The notes beneath the pieces were generated by a model, which was not told the origin of the DNA, searched no databases, and saw only the letters and a list, made by a program, of their open reading frames with translations. This document shows positions 3,229 to 10,173 of a DNA stretch of 64,000 nucleotides, piece after piece. Each line of letters begins with the position of its first letter. Positions within the stretch are counted from its first letter, which is position 1. The stretch is from Dehalococcoidia bacterium (GTDB lineage Bacteria > Chloroflexota > Dehalococcoidia > Bin125): the NCBI GenBank assembly GCA_965116225.1, contig OZ220495.1:2023043-2087042 (forward strand), in the 5' to 3' direction. A program made the position numbers and the translations under genes.

Positions 3229-3780
3229 CTGATGCGATGCCAGCGGATACTCCTACCGACTGCTCTGGCCGTGTTGCTTGCGGCGCTGTCGATTGGCCTC
3301 AGCGCCTGTCGCCCTCAGCTCGAAGACGACATCGAGCAGTTGGAAGTCGATCTGGCGCTGGTGGAGGAAGAGTCGCAACGCGCTCAGCTATTGGCCGCGC
3401 TCGAACCGCTGGATCCACTGCGCTATCACCACCTCGATCTGATCATTCGCGAGGAACAGCGCATTCCCACCGACGCGGTGATCTGGGCGACCCGAGCCCG
3501 CGAGACGCTCGACTGGGTCGCCTGGCCGGTCGAGCTGCGCGACCACGTTGCACAGTATGAAGAATGGCTGAATTCGCTGCTGCACGCGCTCCGCAACGAT
3601 GATCCCGCGGCGGCGGATGACCCGTCGCGGATCACCCACGCGCTGGCGCATACATTCGAGGTGACGCTTGAGGCGTGGTTGAGCAATGAGTCGCTGCCGG
3701 CCGTGCCGGAGCTGGCAGGGCTGGAGCCTCCCGCGCATGACAGTGCTCCTGGCGACGGTCATGACGAGCACGAGGAATAG
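3229..3780 (+). CDS. Hypothetical lipoprotein with His/acidic C-terminal tail
   Basis: Signal peptide with LSAC lipobox; helical body; ends HDSAPGDGHDEHEE. Confidence 0.7.
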   Translation: MMRCQRILLPTALAVLLAALSIGLSACRPQLEDDIEQLEVDLALVEEESQRAQLLAALEPLDPLRYHHLDLIIREEQRIPTDAVIWATRARETLDWVAWPVELRDHVAQYEEWLNSLLHALRNDDPAAADDPSRITHALAHTFEVTLEAWLSNESLPAVPELAGLEPPAHDSAPGDGHDEHEE

Positions 3781-4438
3781 GCGAAGCCTGTTTGCGCCCC
3801 TGTTGCTGGGTCTGACAGCCTGTTGGTTTTCCATGTGCGATGTCTCCGCGCACGCCGCCTACGAATCGTCCTCGCCGGCCTTCGCCGAAGTGCTTGTCGA
3901 GTCGCCCGCCGAAATCAGTATCCGCTTCACGCAGGAGCTGTTCCGACGCGCTGGCGCCAACGCGATCAGCGTGCAGCACATTGATTCCGAGAGCGATGTC
4001 GCCACCGGCGCCCCGATCATCGACAACCAGAATCGCCGAGTGATGACTGCGGTGTTGGAACAGCAGCTTGCTCCGGGTCGTTACCTCGTCTCGTGGATCA
4101 ATCTCTCGGCCGAGGATGGCGACGAAGATTCCGGGGCGTATCCCTTCTACATCGAACGAGCCGCGAGCGCCGACGAAATCGCCGACGATCGGCAGCTTGC
4201 CACAGACTTGCTGATCACGTACCCCAAGGACGAATCGGGTGAGTCGGGCGACGATTTCGACAGCGATTCCGATGGTGTTGCGGTCGCAACCAGACCGACA
4301 GTTCCCGCAGTCGTTCGCAGCGCAACCTCGACCGATGTCGCGCTCGGTGCCGGGCCGATTGTCTTTCTGGGCGTCGGTTTGGTCGCAGCGCTCGTGCTCA
4401 TTGGCGTGCTTGGATACAGACTGGGCTCGCGGCCTTGA
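3761..4438 (+). CDS. CopC-like protein with C-terminal membrane anchor
   Basis: Signal peptide then HAAYESSSPA...ISIRFTQEL...PGRYLVSW..LSAEDG; acidic linker; C-terminal hydrophobic helix. Confidence 0.75.
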   Translation: MTSTRNRRSLFAPLLLGLTACWFSMCDVSAHAAYESSSPAFAEVLVESPAEISIRFTQELFRRAGANAISVQHIDSESDVATGAPIIDNQNRRVMTAVLEQQLAPGRYLVSWINLSAEDGDEDSGAYPFYIERAASADEIADDRQLATDLLITYPKDESGESGDDFDSDSDGVAVATRPTVPAVVRSATSTDVALGAGPIVFLGVGLVAALVLIGVLGYRLGSRP

Positions 4439-5460
4439 GCGGCGTGAGCCGATCGATCGGCGCGGTTGTCGTCGCGCTACTCCCGCTGGCGCTGATCGCG
4501 TGCGGCGATGGTGCGGTGGACATGGAGCGCCGCATCCCGGTGCCGGGCACGTTCGTCTACACGTCAGCCACCGATCTATGGATACAGGACGACGCGGGCG
4601 CTCGACTGTTGATCGCCGCTGGGCAGGACCAGCAACTCTTGCAGCCGGCAATCTCGCCCGACGGCACGCAAGTCGCCTACGTCGTCTTTCAGCCGACGCA
4701 AGCCGCAGGGACGACGATCGGTGCCGACCTCGCCGTCGCCAGGCTCGATGATCCCGAGCCGCAGATCGTCTTCGGCCACGCCGAGCACGCCGAATTCGCC
4801 TGGAATCCGCGCTGGACGCCCGATGGCGCATCGCTCATCTTCACGCGGGAATCGGCTCAGTCGGCGACATCGAGGATCAGCGTGTCTCGGCTGCATCTCT
4901 CGACCGGGGTGGTTGAGGTCTTGCGCGACGATGCGCGCGACGCCGATATCTCGCCCGACGGCGACCGACTGGTGTTCGTCAGCGGGCCTTACAGCGGCGA
5001 TCCCCATCTCGTGGTGCAGTCGTTGTCGGACGGTGCTGAGACTGAACTGGATCCGGAGCGCTCTTGGCAACTTCGGCCATTCCGTATCCCTCGCTTCAGC
5101 ACCGACGTCCGCCGCGTGCTCTTTTCCGCCGGTCAAATTTTGCCGCAGGTCTCGGCCGTTGCGCTGAGCTTGAACGGTCCCGAAGATATCTGGAGCTACG
5201 ACCTGTCCAGCGCCGAACTCCAGCAGATCGCCGCCGTCGGCGAGGACCAGCCCGACTTCACCCTCTCCAACGACGGCCGTCACGTGCTCATCCTCGGCGC
5301 CTTCGGCGTATACCTAATATCGGCATCCGCATCCGAACTCGTCTACGCCATTGCCGCCGGCGAGATCCACGGTTGGATCGACTGGCGCGGCAACATCAGC
5401 GACGATGAGTGGGCCGCGATCCGGGCGTCGATCTTCGAGACGACGGGCGCGACGCCGTGA
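4435..5460 (+). CDS. TolB-like/PD40 beta-propeller lipoprotein
   Basis: LIAC lipobox; repeated PAISPDG, PRWTPDG, DISPDG, PRFSTD, LSNDG blades; TTG start overlaps the previous stop. Confidence 0.8.
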   Translation: MSGVSRSIGAVVVALLPLALIACGDGAVDMERRIPVPGTFVYTSATDLWIQDDAGARLLIAAGQDQQLLQPAISPDGTQVAYVVFQPTQAAGTTIGADLAVARLDDPEPQIVFGHAEHAEFAWNPRWTPDGASLIFTRESAQSATSRISVSRLHLSTGVVEVLRDDARDADISPDGDRLVFVSGPYSGDPHLVVQSLSDGAETELDPERSWQLRPFRIPRFSTDVRRVLFSAGQILPQVSAVALSLNGPEDIWSYDLSSAELQQIAAVGEDQPDFTLSNDGRHVLILGAFGVYLISASASELVYAIAAGEIHGWIDWRGNISDDEWAAIRASIFETTGATP

Positions 5461-7688
5461 CGCGCCTCGGTCTGATCGTCTGCTCGCTGATGGCGATGCT
5501 GGCGGCATTGCGCCTGACGGCGCCTGACGCGCACGCGCACGCGTTGCTCGCCCGCGCCGACCCGCCGATCAACGCCTCGCTGCGCGAATCGCCGACCACG
5601 ATCACGCTGTTCATGACCGAGCAGCTACAGCGCAGCCATAGCTCGGTGCAAGTGCTCGACAGCGGCGGCGGGCGGCGAGACATTGGCGAGACCGAGTTTT
5701 CCGACGCGGTCGCGACGCAAATGAGCGTCCGCGTATTGCGGCTCGATCCGGGCGTCTACACCGTTGTTTGGCGAACGCTCTCCGAAGTGGATGGCCATAC
5801 CTGGACCGGTTCGTACGTCTTCTCGGTGCTTAACCCCGATGGCTCAGCGCCAACGGGCGGCGGATTGGACGTCGATCTGGATCGTCCAGGTCCGCCGATC
5901 GCGGTCGACTCGGCCGTCAAAGCGATCGGGCTCGGCGCGCTCGTGCTCTTCGTGGGCGCGGTGTGTATCGCGTTGCTGTTGCGACCACTTCCCATACCGG
6001 CTCTGCTTCCATTCATGTCGCTAACGGTTGTGGTTGGACTCGCGGCGACCAGCTACGAGGCGGTCGCCGGCGCGCTGCGGCTGGGGAACATTGGGTTCCT
6101 GGGCGATGTGTTGTTCGAGACGCGTAACGGACTCTGGCTGCAGCAGCGTTGGTACGCGCTGATTGCGGCGGCGCTCATCCTCGGTCTGCTCTGTATTCAA
6201 GGGGCGAAACGCCGGCGAGATGTCGCCGAGTTGGAGCGGCGCGAGCATTCCGTCGTGCTCACGTTCCTCGCAATACTAGCGATCGTCTGGCTCGCTTCGT
6301 CATCGGCGATTTCGCATGGCGCGGCGATCGGCACAGGCTGGATCTGGGGCGCGCTATTCGATGCGTTGCATCTGGCGTCGGCGGCGATCTGGATCGGAGG
6401 GCTCGCCAGTCTGTTGCTGGTGCTCCGCGCACATTCCGATTATCGGATCGAATCTGTCCGCCGGTTCTCCGTTCTCGCGGCGATCATGGTGCCAGTTCTG
6501 ATTGCGGCGGGTCTGCTCTCGGCGTTGATTCAGATTCCCGACGTCGACGGCATCGTCGAGACCGACTGGGGCTTGGCGTTCATCGTCAAGCTCGCCCTGC
6601 TGGTGTTGTTGTTCGCGACAGCCGCCGCCAACGCTATGTTCCTTCGACCACGCGACGCAGCGGCCGACGGCACCGACCACGCGTTGGCGCGCCGCTTCTT
6701 ACGAATGATGCGCGTCGAGGTCGCGCTCGCGCTCGTCGTGTTCGTCGCCTCGGCGGTGCTCACACAGCTTCCGTCTCCGGCTAGTGCGCAGCCGGAGGTT
6801 GAGCAAAAGGACAACACCGTCACCGAGACCGTCGCCCGCGGCGATGTCGTCGCTGCGCTCGAAATCTCGCCCAACCTGGTCGGCTTCAACACCTGGACTG
6901 CGACCGTCGAAGCAGACGCGAACAACCCGGTCGAAGTGATGCTGTTGCGGTTCCGCTACCAGGATCGCGACGTGGGACCGGTCACCGTGTCGATGACGCG
7001 GGTCGCGGACGATCGGTTCCAACTCGAGGGTGCCTACTTCGGGCTACCTGGCGAGTGGACGGTGGAGATGGAGATCCGTCGTGCCTCGGGTGACGACCTG
7101 ATCACCGGCGTGCGCGCTCGGGTGGAGTCCGGCTACCAGGCATCGCCGTTCGCCGCCGACCGCGGTGGCGCGCTCGCCTTGCCGCTGACCCAGATGGACT
7201 GGAACGGCGTCGGCGCGCTCTGGGCTTTCCTGTTCGGCGGGCTGGTTTGGATCAATCGGCCGCACATTCGCAGCCAATGGGGTCCGCGCGGTGGCGATGC
7301 CGCCTTTGGCGGCGGCGTGCTCGGCCTGATTGCGGCCGTCGTTTTGCTGACCGGTCTACACGTCGAGCCCGGTCGAACCCTGGCCAATCCAGTTCAGCTA
7401 AGCCAGGAATCGGTCGAACGCGGGGCGTCCCTGTTCGCGCGCAACTGCGTCGCGTGTCACGGCGAGCAGGGCGCTGGCGATGGGCCGCTAGCGGACACGT
7501 TACCAGCGCCGCCGGCTAACTTCACCGTGCATGTCCCGTTCCATCCCGACGGCGTCCTGTTCGCCTGGATTAGCGACGGCATCCGCGGTACCGGAATGCC
7601 GGCCTGGTCGCCGCAGCTGTCCGATCAGGAACGCTGGGACCTGGTCAATTTCCTGCGTGCGACCTTCGATTTGTCAGCCGCGCGGTAG
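5457..7688 (+). CDS. CopC-CopD-(YtkA/FixH-like)-cytochrome c fusion
   Basis: HALLARADPP...LSEVDGH (CopC); multi-TM with SHG, HL..AAIWIGGL, RRFS and K.AL (CopD); Ig-like segment; CVACH heme motif and GTGMPAW axial Met. GTG start overlaps the upstream TGA. Confidence 0.85.
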   Translation: MTRLGLIVCSLMAMLAALRLTAPDAHAHALLARADPPINASLRESPTTITLFMTEQLQRSHSSVQVLDSGGGRRDIGETEFSDAVATQMSVRVLRLDPGVYTVVWRTLSEVDGHTWTGSYVFSVLNPDGSAPTGGGLDVDLDRPGPPIAVDSAVKAIGLGALVLFVGAVCIALLLRPLPIPALLPFMSLTVVVGLAATSYEAVAGALRLGNIGFLGDVLFETRNGLWLQQRWYALIAAALILGLLCIQGAKRRRDVAELERREHSVVLTFLAILAIVWLASSSAISHGAAIGTGWIWGALFDALHLASAAIWIGGLASLLLVLRAHSDYRIESVRRFSVLAAIMVPVLIAAGLLSALIQIPDVDGIVETDWGLAFIVKLALLVLLFATAAANAMFLRPRDAAADGTDHALARRFLRMMRVEVALALVVFVASAVLTQLPSPASAQPEVEQKDNTVTETVARGDVVAALEISPNLVGFNTWTATVEADANNPVEVMLLRFRYQDRDVGPVTVSMTRVADDRFQLEGAYFGLPGEWTVEMEIRRASGDDLITGVRARVESGYQASPFAADRGGALALPLTQMDWNGVGALWAFLFGGLVWINRPHIRSQWGPRGGDAAFGGGVLGLIAAVVLLTGLHVEPGRTLANPVQLSQESVERGASLFARNCVACHGEQGAGDGPLADTLPAPPANFTVHVPFHPDGVLFAWISDGIRGTGMPAWSPQLSDQERWDLVNFLRATFDLSAAR

Positions 7689-7800: not shown

Positions 7801-8835
7801 ATGGTGACCGCGATTGAGAACCCGGGTCTCAACCTTGACTGGCTGAACCTGGAGACCGACGACGAGTTCGAGATTCCAGCAGGTCGCAAGGGCGTCACGC
7901 TGCAGTCGATCAATCAGCGTATGGCTGGTGTCGACGGAGTCGACGAAGCCAACTGGCGCTCGTTCGTGCCGCGCGGGATCGAGGCTGACCCGCGCTCTAA
8001 CGCCCACGCCCGTCAGTATCGCGACAAGGGCGATGTCTGGTCCGAATCGGCAATGCTGCTCTACGAAGAGGCGCTGCAGCGCCAGTGGTCATCGGCGCGC
8101 GATATTCCTTGGGACACGATCGGCGACCAGCCGGACGACATCGAAAAGGCGATGTGCACGTTGTGTACATTCCTGACCCAGGTCGAGTTCATCGCCGGCG
8201 ATGTGCCGGGGCGATTCCTTGAGTCGGTCCACCCTGACTTCTTCGAGTCGCAGCTTTTCCTTGGTACGCAGCTGATGGATGAGGCGCGGCATCTCGACGT
8301 CTTCCGTAAGCGTGTGCTGGTCAATGGCGGCGGCATGTCGCCGGCCGGCCTCGGTGCCGTCGGCCTGCTGGCGATCGACGATTTCACCGAGATGACCGCC
8401 ATCCTGCACCTGTTCGCAGAGGGTCTGGTGCAGTCGCTGTTCCGCATGGGCGAGCTGATCGGCCAGAACGAAGCCGAAAAGCGCATGTTTCGCCTCTCCG
8501 CTCAGGACGAGTCACGGCACCTCGCCTTCGGCGTGACGCACACCAAGTACACCGTTGAGACGCAGCCTTGGCGTAAGGAAGAGCTGCACCATTACCTCGA
8601 TATCAACGAGACCGTGCAGAATACGCAGGCTGGCCTGACCACCAACCCGATCACCGGCGAAGCGCTGGCCGTGCTCGCGGGCGGCGGCATCGAGTACCTC
8701 GACGAAGGCTACAACCTTGTCATGCTGATGCGTAAGAAGCAGATCAACGAGTACTATCACCGACTCCAGGTGGTCGGACTCGGCGACCGCCTTGATCGCA
8801 TGTCGCCGGACATGCGCGAGCTGATCACGGTCTAA
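7801..8835 (+). CDS. Ferritin-like diiron-carboxylate protein, intact ligand set
   Basis: E (TQVEF), DEARH, E (FAEG), DESRH. Start uncertain; ORF is open from 7714. Confidence 0.8.
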   Translation: MVTAIENPGLNLDWLNLETDDEFEIPAGRKGVTLQSINQRMAGVDGVDEANWRSFVPRGIEADPRSNAHARQYRDKGDVWSESAMLLYEEALQRQWSSARDIPWDTIGDQPDDIEKAMCTLCTFLTQVEFIAGDVPGRFLESVHPDFFESQLFLGTQLMDEARHLDVFRKRVLVNGGGMSPAGLGAVGLLAIDDFTEMTAILHLFAEGLVQSLFRMGELIGQNEAEKRMFRLSAQDESRHLAFGVTHTKYTVETQPWRKEELHHYLDINETVQNTQAGLTTNPITGEALAVLAGGGIEYLDEGYNLVMLMRKKQINEYYHRLQVVGLGDRLDRMSPDMRELITV

Positions 8836-8901
8836 GTGGCATTCGCGCTGCGCAGCGACGTAATCGCCTGAGTCCAACACCAGCTGAGAGAAGCGAGCCA
8901 C

Positions 8902-10173
8902 ATGCCGGCATTGTCCTCCGCTCAGAAGATGCGTGCCCAAGTGCGTGGCTGGACGCCTGATCTGATCGAGCGTGCCGAGCACTCCGCCGCGTCCGGTCGA
9001 CAGATCGATAACATCCTCAACATCTCGATCGAGCCCGATCGCATCGCCAAGTGGCTTGAATTCGTGGAGACCCAGCCCGAGCATCCGTTCGCGCAGGCCC
9101 AGTTCATCATGTTCGAGGACGGCGGCGAAACCGGCCTCAAGCCTACCCCGTCCGACGACGGTATGCGGCTGAGCGATGTCGACATTGGCTCCTATGGGCA
9201 CGTGCCGGATGTCTGGAACTACCGCAACGACCTTCCGCGCGGCACGCGCCCTGTGCCCGGTATGTACATGCCCGCCGGCTACGCGATCTACGACCGCACC
9301 GAAGTCTGGGCAGATGGCGTTTCCGATCTCTACGAAGACGCGATCCGCGACCGCTGGGTCCCCGCGACCGACCTCAACTGGGAGAACCGCGAGGAACTGT
9401 CGCCGGAGGTCGAACGCGCGACCGGGCAACTCTGCGCGATCTACTCGACCTACGGCATCGCCGAACAAAAGATCATCTCCAGGTGGCTGGAGGAGATTTC
9501 CTACGGTTTCCACGAGGTCAAGCTGTTCTTGGCGACCCAAGTCTATGACGCCGGACGCAAGGTTGAGGCGCTGCGTAAGCGCGCGTTGCACGGCTCCGGC
9601 GTCATCGGCAAGGCACCGCTCTCCGACGTCTCCGAGTCCTGGTACAACGCTCTCACCTTTACCGAGATGATCGTCGCCCTCGATGTGGTTTACAAGTCCT
9701 ACGAACTGACCGCCTTCGAATGCGCGACCGATTGGTCCCGTTCGGACTTCGACCGTGATCTCTTCGCGCGTCTCGCCGAGGACAGCAAACGACATCTCGA
9801 GTACGGTCTCAAGCACCTCGAATGGTATAACCGCTATGCCGAGCGCGCCGAACTCGAGCTGCCGATCTTCCTCGCCAAGGCCGAAGGCGGTCTATCATCC
9901 GAATTAGCGCAATCGCCGCTCGAGCGCGAGGCGCTTGCAGTGCTCTACGCCGACGGCGTCGAACGCCTCGACGCAGGCGTCGAAGCGCTGCGCCAGCTGC
10001 GGGAAAAGCAGCTCCACGACTATCTGCATCGGCTGCACGAGCACGGCGTCGACCGCATCGGCGAAACGGTGGCGATCCTTGGTCTGGCGACTCAGGACCC
10101 GCTCCTTAAGGCGCTGAACCCGGAGGCGCTCGTCGAAGGTGCAGCCACAGGCACAACGGCGACCGATCTCTGA
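8902..10173 (+). CDS. Ferritin-like protein, paralog of the upstream gene with degenerate iron ligands
   Basis: Shares VW...LYE.A...W.(P/S)A.D..W and F(E/D)V.LFL.TQ..D with the upstream gene; ExxH motifs read DAGRK and DSKRH. Confidence 0.75.
   Translation: MPALSSAQKMRAQVRGWTPDLIERAEHSAASGRQIDNILNISIEPDRIAKWLEFVETQPEHPFAQAQFIMFEDGGETGLKPTPSDDGMRLSDVDIGSYGHVPDVWNYRNDLPRGTRPVPGMYMPAGYAIYDRTEVWADGVSDLYEDAIRDRWVPATDLNWENREELSPEVERATGQLCAIYSTYGIAEQKIISRWLEEISYGFHEVKLFLATQVYDAGRKVEALRKRALHGSGVIGKAPLSDVSESWYNALTFTEMIVALDVVYKSYELTAFECATDWSRSDFDRDLFARLAEDSKRHLEYGLKHLEWYNRYAERAELELPIFLAKAEGGLSSELAQSPLEREALAVLYADGVERLDAGVEALRQLREKQLHDYLHRLHEHGVDRIGETVAILGLATQDPLLKALNPEALVEGAATGTTATDL

Follow-up and report, generated by a model that had tools for sequence, protein, structure and literature searches.

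A paired R2-like dimetal-carboxylate protein family of Dehalococcoidia with one ligand-complete subunit, one ligand-depleted subunit and a co-occurring small third protein

Dimetal-carboxylate enzymes perform very hard oxidations, and methane monooxygenase, ribonucleotide reductase (RNR), the desaturases and the N-oxygenases are all among them. In some of these systems, including yeast Rnr2/Rnr4, PaaA/PaaC and MmoX/MmoY, a metal-binding catalytic protomer is joined by a ligand-less structural paralog. Here we analyze two adjacent genes, A and B, within a 64,000-nucleotide stretch of a Dehalococcoidia bacterium genome (GenBank assembly GCA_965116225.1, contig OZ220495.1, positions 2,023,043 to 2,087,042 of the forward strand), referred to as the window. 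We consider that A and B probably form an uncharacterised soluble oxidase or oxygenase of the R2-like dimetal-carboxylate type, in which A is the catalytic (alpha) and B the non-catalytic (beta) subunit. An earlier sequence-only reading of the window, made by a model, had proposed an undescribed alpha/beta diiron enzyme at this site, and the comparisons below support that proposal. The same genome holds a second copy of the pair and, at a distance, a gene for a small protein, gamma, that accompanies the pair across genomes.

The closest described protein to A is the azoxy synthase VlmB. VlmB oxidises a hydrazine to an azoxy group during valanimycin biosynthesis (PMC11705231). Together with the Kitasatospora 'protein 60' (8WVR, 6D9F), it has in common with A a ferritin-fold diiron site and the motifs TQ.(M/V)DEARH..VFR and DE.RH, but identity to A is 18–20% and only short stretches can be aligned. 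The genetic setting also differs. VlmB has no degenerate partner and belongs to a natural-product cluster with VlmO, whereas A comes with an obligate beta paralog and an accompanying gamma. No biosynthetic cluster is apparent around either pair, although VlmO itself was not searched for. The comparison indicates that A is a distant relative of VlmB rather than a demonstrable member of its family.

R2lox is the second point of reference. Like A, it has an R2-type fold, a six-ligand E/ExxH/E/ExxH site, a glutamate as first ligand and a phenylalanine at the position of the R2 tyrosine, and its physiological function is likewise orphan. R2lox carries a Mn/Fe or Fe/Fe site and forms a homodimer in which both sites are intact, whereas B lacks the full set of six ligands, and both A and B have long N-terminal extensions that distinguish them from R2lox. 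R2lox is further marked by a Tyr-Val ether cross-link and by a fatty acid bound as ligand; its alignment with A is too weak (E 4e-4, partial) to place the residues concerned. In haloarchaea, R2lox genes cluster with genes for ferredoxin and sterol-carrier proteins and have been linked to alkane degradation (PMC9314684). That cluster resembles one relative of our pair, locus L092, where a diiron gene, a 148-amino-acid protein and a Fer4 ferredoxin are found together.

The division of labor suggested for A and B has precedents in more distant enzymes. Rnr2/Rnr4 share the R2 fold with A and B, but the class I RNR partner is missing in this genome, and where the class Ia and Ib R2 proteins have their radical tyrosine, four residues past the histidine of the first motif, A has F168. 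PaaA/PaaC (PF05138) and the MmoX/MmoY hydroxylases of the bacterial multicomponent monooxygenases (BMM; PF02332) follow the same pair logic, yet no Pfam model of any kind matches A or B at E ≤ 1, and BMM chains appear only at low ranks in structural searches. BMM operons also encode a reductase, a ferredoxin and/or a small effector, none of which lies in the window; gamma, unlinked here, is operonic in sister lineages.

Neither A nor B maps to a characterised family. In NCBIfam, A matches R2lox only (models NF006198-NF006202), scoring 31.5 bits where the cut-off is 194, and B matches nothing. A profile search of PDB sequences with A returned the VlmB homolog 6D9F/8WVR (E 9e-6, over only 39 + 42 residues around the ExxH motifs) and then the partial R2lox alignment already mentioned; the same search with B gave no match. 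Foldseek, run with AlphaFold 2 models, ranked VlmB/6D9F best for A (E 1.4e-3, TM-score 0.49–0.53, 18–20% identity), followed by R2lox, RNR R2 and ADO, and for B returned RNR R2, R2lox and the Chlamydia R2c (E 2e-4 and weaker, TMt ~0.6). Chains of sMMO, ToMO and phenol hydroxylase were found at rank 30 or lower, with TM-scores of 0.28–0.49. On the Foldseek matches of both models, therefore, the predicted folds of A and B belong to the R2/R2lox/VlmB branch of the ferritin superfamily and not to the MmoX or PaaA branches. The sequence-only reading had likened the pair to MmoX/MmoY and PaaA/PaaC; the catalytic/structural logic of that likeness stands, but the fold is of the R2/R2lox/VlmB type.

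Public homologs are labelled 'hypothetical' or 'ferritin-like domain-containing protein', without a Pfam domain, and searches of the full-text literature turned up no account of these proteins. The A/B family, widespread in Dehalococcoidia, thus has no Pfam or NCBIfam model, solved structure or paper. It is an uncharacterised family inside a known superfamily, with a known architectural logic. Two other assignments were considered and rejected. The AurF model PF11583 misses both A and B, with a positive control from the same genome scoring 46.9 bits against a cut-off of 29.6, and the amidohydrolase-related Mn/Fe oxygenases AibH/SfbO were ruled out by their different fold. The positive control is a separate AurF-family diiron protein of 275 amino acids (G000:C1:2564671-2565501, minus strand) with the ligand pattern E/DEARH/E/DEVRH, and its context is unrelated to the pair.

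Gene A (7801..8835, plus strand) encodes a 344-amino-acid subunit, modelled with an R2-like ferritin fold, that carries a complete dimetal-carboxylate ligand set. The frame is open from 7714 onward, but the ATG at 7801 is where all homologs start, and an AGGA lies 8 nucleotides upstream of it; the start was set there for these reasons. The first carboxylate ligand, E129 (8185..8187), lies in the helix TQVEFIAGD. It is followed by the first ExxH motif, D160-E161-A-R-H164 (8278..8292), the third carboxylate, E207 (8419..8421), and the second ExxH motif, D236-E237-S-R-H240 (8506..8520). The E/DEARH/E/DESRH set recognised by the sequence-only reading is therefore all present. Each element is invariant in the alpha clade, and the six ligands (E129, E161, H164, E207, E237 and H240) are unchanged in 16 homologs, down to 54% identity. 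F168 (8302-8304), at the radical-tyrosine position of RNR R2, is a nearly invariant phenylalanine across the superfamily alignment. The E129-bearing helix also contains C119-T-L-C122 (window 8155-8166), which is invariant among the alpha subunits of Chloroflexota; C119 is conserved widely in the superfamily and C122 less so, and the two cysteines are a candidate redox or channel-lining motif.

Gene B (8902..10173, plus strand) encodes 423 amino acids and is a paralog of A (BLASTP, 29% identity over 284 residues, E 1e-35), with an R2-like fold in its model and without the dimetal site. In a gapless register with A, five of the six ligands are lost and H298 alone is kept. G185 replaces ligand E129, with an invariant E188-Q-K190 one helical turn further on (9454..9471). 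The first motif has degenerated to D216-A-G-R-K220 (9547..9561; Glu to Ala, His to Lys), K265 takes the place of ligand E207 within Y264-K265-S-Y-E268 (9691..9705), and the second motif reads D294-S-K-R-H298 (9781..9795; Glu to Ser, His retained). The replacements are themselves conserved. A217, K220, K265 and S295 are invariant in 15 homologs of B, down to 47% identity, and position 185 is glycine in all of these but one, which has alanine. The sequence-only reading had called B a homolog of A with both ExxH motifs broken (DAGRK, DSKRH); that description holds, and the loss is fuller than it stated. The N-terminus of B is about 55 residues longer than that of A and is modelled as a small helical domain, for which a comparison with gamma found no relation.

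Loss of the ligands has not been accompanied by decay. Measured against about 40 close orthologs, the ratio of nonsynonymous to synonymous substitution rates (dN/dS) is 0.012–0.03 for A and 0.05–0.09 for B, and with values well below 1 both genes are under strong purifying selection. Together with a confident model of B (predicted local distance difference test score, pLDDT, 90.4), this agrees with the earlier view of B as a full-length, intact gene. Neither protein has a transmembrane or hydrophobic segment. The two same-strand open reading frames (ORFs) are separated by a 66-nucleotide spacer (8836..8901, plus strand) in which a scan for promoters and terminators found nothing above a shuffled background, so A and B are likely co-transcribed. 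The spacer also contains a perfect 12-nucleotide palindrome, CGCTGCGCAGCG, at 8846-8857.

How old is this arrangement? A profile search for the family recovered about 1,000 representatives at 50% identity, 505 of them at E ≤ 1e-10, and a maximum-likelihood tree of the superfamily was built from 94 full-length members. The fully liganded alpha clade, which contains A, is sister to the beta clade, which contains B (support 100/96; 100/99 for the beta clade itself). No homolog of B retains ExxH: all 37 beta representatives at 50% identity are degenerate, by varied patterns of replacement. Fully liganded singletons fall outside both clades. With a liganded alpha clade placed as sister to an entirely degenerate beta clade, the catalytic/structural split is old and arose once.

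The two subunits have also travelled together. In 76 of the 82 loci beta comes next after alpha; contig ends or overlapping ORF calls explain five of the exceptions, and the sixth, L071, is not accounted for. The same order recurs in five further independent lineages, and in the loci examined the beta clade was never seen without an adjacent alpha. Alpha and beta distance matrices are strongly correlated across 74 loci (r = 0.965; Mantel test, 0 of 999), with beta evolving about 1.4 times faster than alpha. The second pair of this genome (G000:C1:501124-503488, minus strand, corresponding to L011:8544-11064) encodes an A2 that is 74% identical to A and a B2 that is 55% identical to B. For both subunits, pair 1 sorts apart from pair 2, from which it follows that the pairs duplicate and diverge as units. 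A third pair occurs in most genomes of the order (e.g. L105:2972-5147) but not in this one. The pair occurs in 60 of the 65 genomes from the order, in 122 of the 401 from the class, and in only 5 of 301 in an even sample of the phylum. A and B are thus co-conserved, in adjacency, occurrence, divergence and duplication alike, and we infer from this that they interact physically.

A third component emerges from the relatives of the pair. Singleton A-like genes at loci L092, L093, L094 and L095 precede a protein of about 150 amino acids, with a 2[4Fe-4S] ferredoxin also present in L092 and L093, and a distant alpha-beta pair at L099 precedes a 145-amino-acid protein of what we call the gamma family. 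The gamma gene of the window's genome encodes 141 amino acids (43% identical to the L099 protein, E 7e-41). It is present in single copy at G000:C1:1503104-1503526 (plus strand), adjoining thyX, about 520 kb upstream of window position 1. The family is marked by the motifs FPSxEWF, HTLN and FYRxNQ, which here read FPSVEWF...HTLN...FYRFNQ. Gamma directly follows the diiron gene or genes in L092, L094, L095, L099 and L110. Other families of the class include at least 30 genomes (e.g. G516, G444, G365 and G699) in which it lies about 20–115 nucleotides 3' of beta on the same strand, forming an alpha-beta-gamma operon. None of the 80 Chloroflexota loci examined, with flanks of up to ±10 kb, contains gamma. 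It is therefore unlinked in the window's subclade, where one gamma is kept beside two or three pairs.

Where linkage has been lost, co-occurrence has not. By raw count, gamma is found in 59 of 65 genomes of the order; all five genomes that lack a pair also lack gamma, and the sixth absence is a metagenome-assembled genome (MAG) in 220 contigs. In the phylum sample it occurs in just the three genomes that hold a pair, and in all three of them. Among 401 genomes of the class, 117 have pair and gamma, 5 the pair only, 5 gamma only and 274 neither. All five pair-only genomes are fragmented MAGs, and three of the five gamma-only genomes belong to one genus whose alpha and beta fall near the E-value threshold used. 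Operonic in some lineages and strictly co-occurring where unlinked, gamma gives strong evidence of belonging to the alpha/beta system. The sequence-only reading noted that a reductase, a ferredoxin and a coupling protein are all missing from the locus. For the window this is right, but it leaves out the co-occurring gamma encoded half a megabase away.

What kind of protein gamma is can be narrowed only slightly. A profile search of PDB sequences brought up Thermus SCP2 only at E 1.5–1.9, an hhalign comparison with one SCP2 domain was negative, and the SCP2 model PF02036 has no match in this genome; an SCP2-like nature is neither shown nor excluded. At L110:5132-9848 (G195:C17), alpha, beta and gamma stand in a five-gene run with an SCPx-type thiolase (Thiolase_C_1) and a DUF35 protein (zf-ChsH2 + OB_ChsH2_C), the latter with a four-cysteine zinc ribbon.

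Upstream of A, on the same strand, are genes for CopC, a PD40 beta-propeller protein and a 759-amino-acid CopC-CopD-cytochrome c fusion (3686-7688, plus strand). Downstream of B are an alpha/beta-hydrolase, a Na+/H+ antiporter with TrkA domains, CcdA, a HIBADH-like dehydrogenase and two family III CoA-transferases. All-against-all ORF clustering of the 82 loci showed that these neighbors are common only to close relatives (≥88% identity). The second pair lacks them and is flanked instead by RecF, a diacylglycerol kinase-like gene and a TrkA K+ channel; nor do they occur at those loci of ~70% identity that were examined, among them Tepidiforma. With synteny so limited, the copper-handling cluster, the hydrolase and the CoA-transferases are not evidence of function.

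More distant relatives offer a different set of neighbors: acyl-CoA dehydrogenases (at three loci), a thiolase with DUF35, a CoA ligase, an enoyl-CoA hydratase, luciferase-like monooxygenases, a P450 with a Rieske protein, and a Fer4 ferredoxin. These adjoining genes hint at hydrophobic or CoA-activated substrates, in parallel with the R2lox/ferredoxin/sterol-carrier clusters of haloarchaea. Two separate lineages encode a MoxR-type AAA_5 ATPase within a few kb of the pair (L011:1349-5059 and L110:2155-3555), which could be coincidence; in this genome its gene precedes one for a VWA-domain protein. Elsewhere, MoxR and VWA proteins act in pairs to insert metal cofactors.

We propose a model in which alpha would bind two metals, Fe/Fe or Mn/Fe, through E129, E161, H164, E207, E237 and H240 within a four-helix bundle. 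Reduced alpha would activate O2 and oxidise a substrate, probably a hydrophobic or CoA-linked one. Beta, which goes back to an ancient duplication of alpha, would hold the position of the second protomer in the ancestral R2-type dimer; judging from the sequence, Lys220, Lys265, Ala217, Ser295 and Gly185 apparently fill the site where it once bound metal. Gamma would most likely be the last part of the enzyme, either an effector or a subunit that presents the substrate. Any electrons required could come from the general ferredoxin pool of the cell, as they do for ADO and the acyl-ACP desaturases; some distant relatives carry a 2[4Fe-4S] ferredoxin of their own. The sequence-only reading listed the electron source as unknown. 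No reductase or ferredoxin is indeed linked to the pair within the window, but such a gap is ordinary for this superfamily.

Other explanations of the pair deserve consideration. Since R2lox, VlmB and RNR R2, the nearest folds, are homodimers, and full-ligand singletons without any beta exist (L092, L095 and L108), A might act alone as an R2lox-like homodimeric oxidase. B would then be merely co-regulated, with a separate metal-independent role in ligand binding, sensing or as a chaperone, and its invariant E188, D216, E268, D294, H298, K220 and K265 could form a new binding pocket. We regard this as rather unlikely, given that beta always lies beside alpha in the loci examined, that duplication has copied the two genes together, and that each beta has co-diverged with its own alpha. 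Taken together, these three observations argue that the two are physical partners in the way of Rnr2/Rnr4 or PaaA/PaaC.

A role in iron storage or detoxification, of the ferritin, Dps or rubrerythrin kind and perhaps tied to the copper-handling genes upstream, is much harder to sustain. Pfam finds no Ferritin, Rubrerythrin or Dps match, and the folds resemble R2, R2lox, VlmB and ADO, not cage-forming ferritins. Membership in the ferritin-like superfamily is in keeping with such a role, as is the position of the pair directly after the CopC, beta-propeller and CopC-CopD-cytochrome c genes on the same strand, but the copper synteny is restricted to relatives of at least 88% identity and disappears at the second pair and at the ~70% loci examined, Tepidiforma among them; we therefore consider this reading very improbable. 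Least credible of all is that A and B are a divergent RNR small subunit, in the form of a heterodimer that resembles class Ic and has one protomer inactive, in the manner of yeast Rnr2/Rnr4. RNR R2 and the Chlamydia R2c are among the top Foldseek matches, and A has a glutamate as first ligand and a phenylalanine at the radical-tyrosine position, as R2c does. However, the sole RNR catalytic subunit of this genome, its single PF02867 gene, is the class II NrdJ (NF005122, 1376.7 bits against a cut-off of 859), and PF00268 (Ribonuc_red_sm) matches nothing in the genome, A and B included. A B12-dependent class II enzyme needs no R2, which excludes an RNR role for the pair to near certainty. The patchy distribution of the family in the phylum sample is also unlike that of an essential RNR.

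The alpha/beta oxidase or oxygenase that we favor has points against it as well. The model of A reaches moderate confidence only (pLDDT 69.7). B retains invariant E188, D216, E268, D294 and H298 at the former site, and with acidic residues and one histidine persisting there, B may bind something rather than serve purely structurally. Gamma has no match in Pfam, NCBIfam or the PDB and no fold recognisable by sequence, and the counts of gamma/pair co-occurrence are not corrected for phylogeny. Finally, the window neighborhood is conserved in close relatives alone, which leaves the substrate to be guessed from distant homologs.

It is tempting to speculate further, and we do so tentatively. Alpha, beta and gamma might constitute an unrecognised class of three-component Mn/Fe or diiron oxygenase, widespread in aerobic Dehalococcoidia (about 30% of the sampled genomes of the class, sponge symbionts included). 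Two or three pairs would share one gamma, act on CoA-activated or lipid-like substrates and draw on general ferredoxin, and the Lys/Asp/Glu/His pocket of beta would serve as a second functional site for a ligand or effector. This fuller picture is possible, but we hold it with considerably less assurance than the alpha/beta assignment itself.

Beyond the identity of the enzyme, we are drawn to what it may say about its hosts and its superfamily. The streamlined genomes of sponge-associated Dehalococcoidia have kept the pair in more than one copy, two in this genome and three in most of its relatives; retention of this kind implies an important aerobic function. New branches of the dimetal-carboxylate enzymes have each brought new chemistry, VlmB and the still-orphan R2lox among them, and this family contains one old clade with a fixed catalytic/structural split and a small, faithful third protein. 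Tepidiforma flava YIM 72310, whose pair lies within NZ_CP115149.1:1526723-1547742, is a cultured carrier, which makes the enzyme directly testable, and the finding of gamma names the three proteins that should be studied together.

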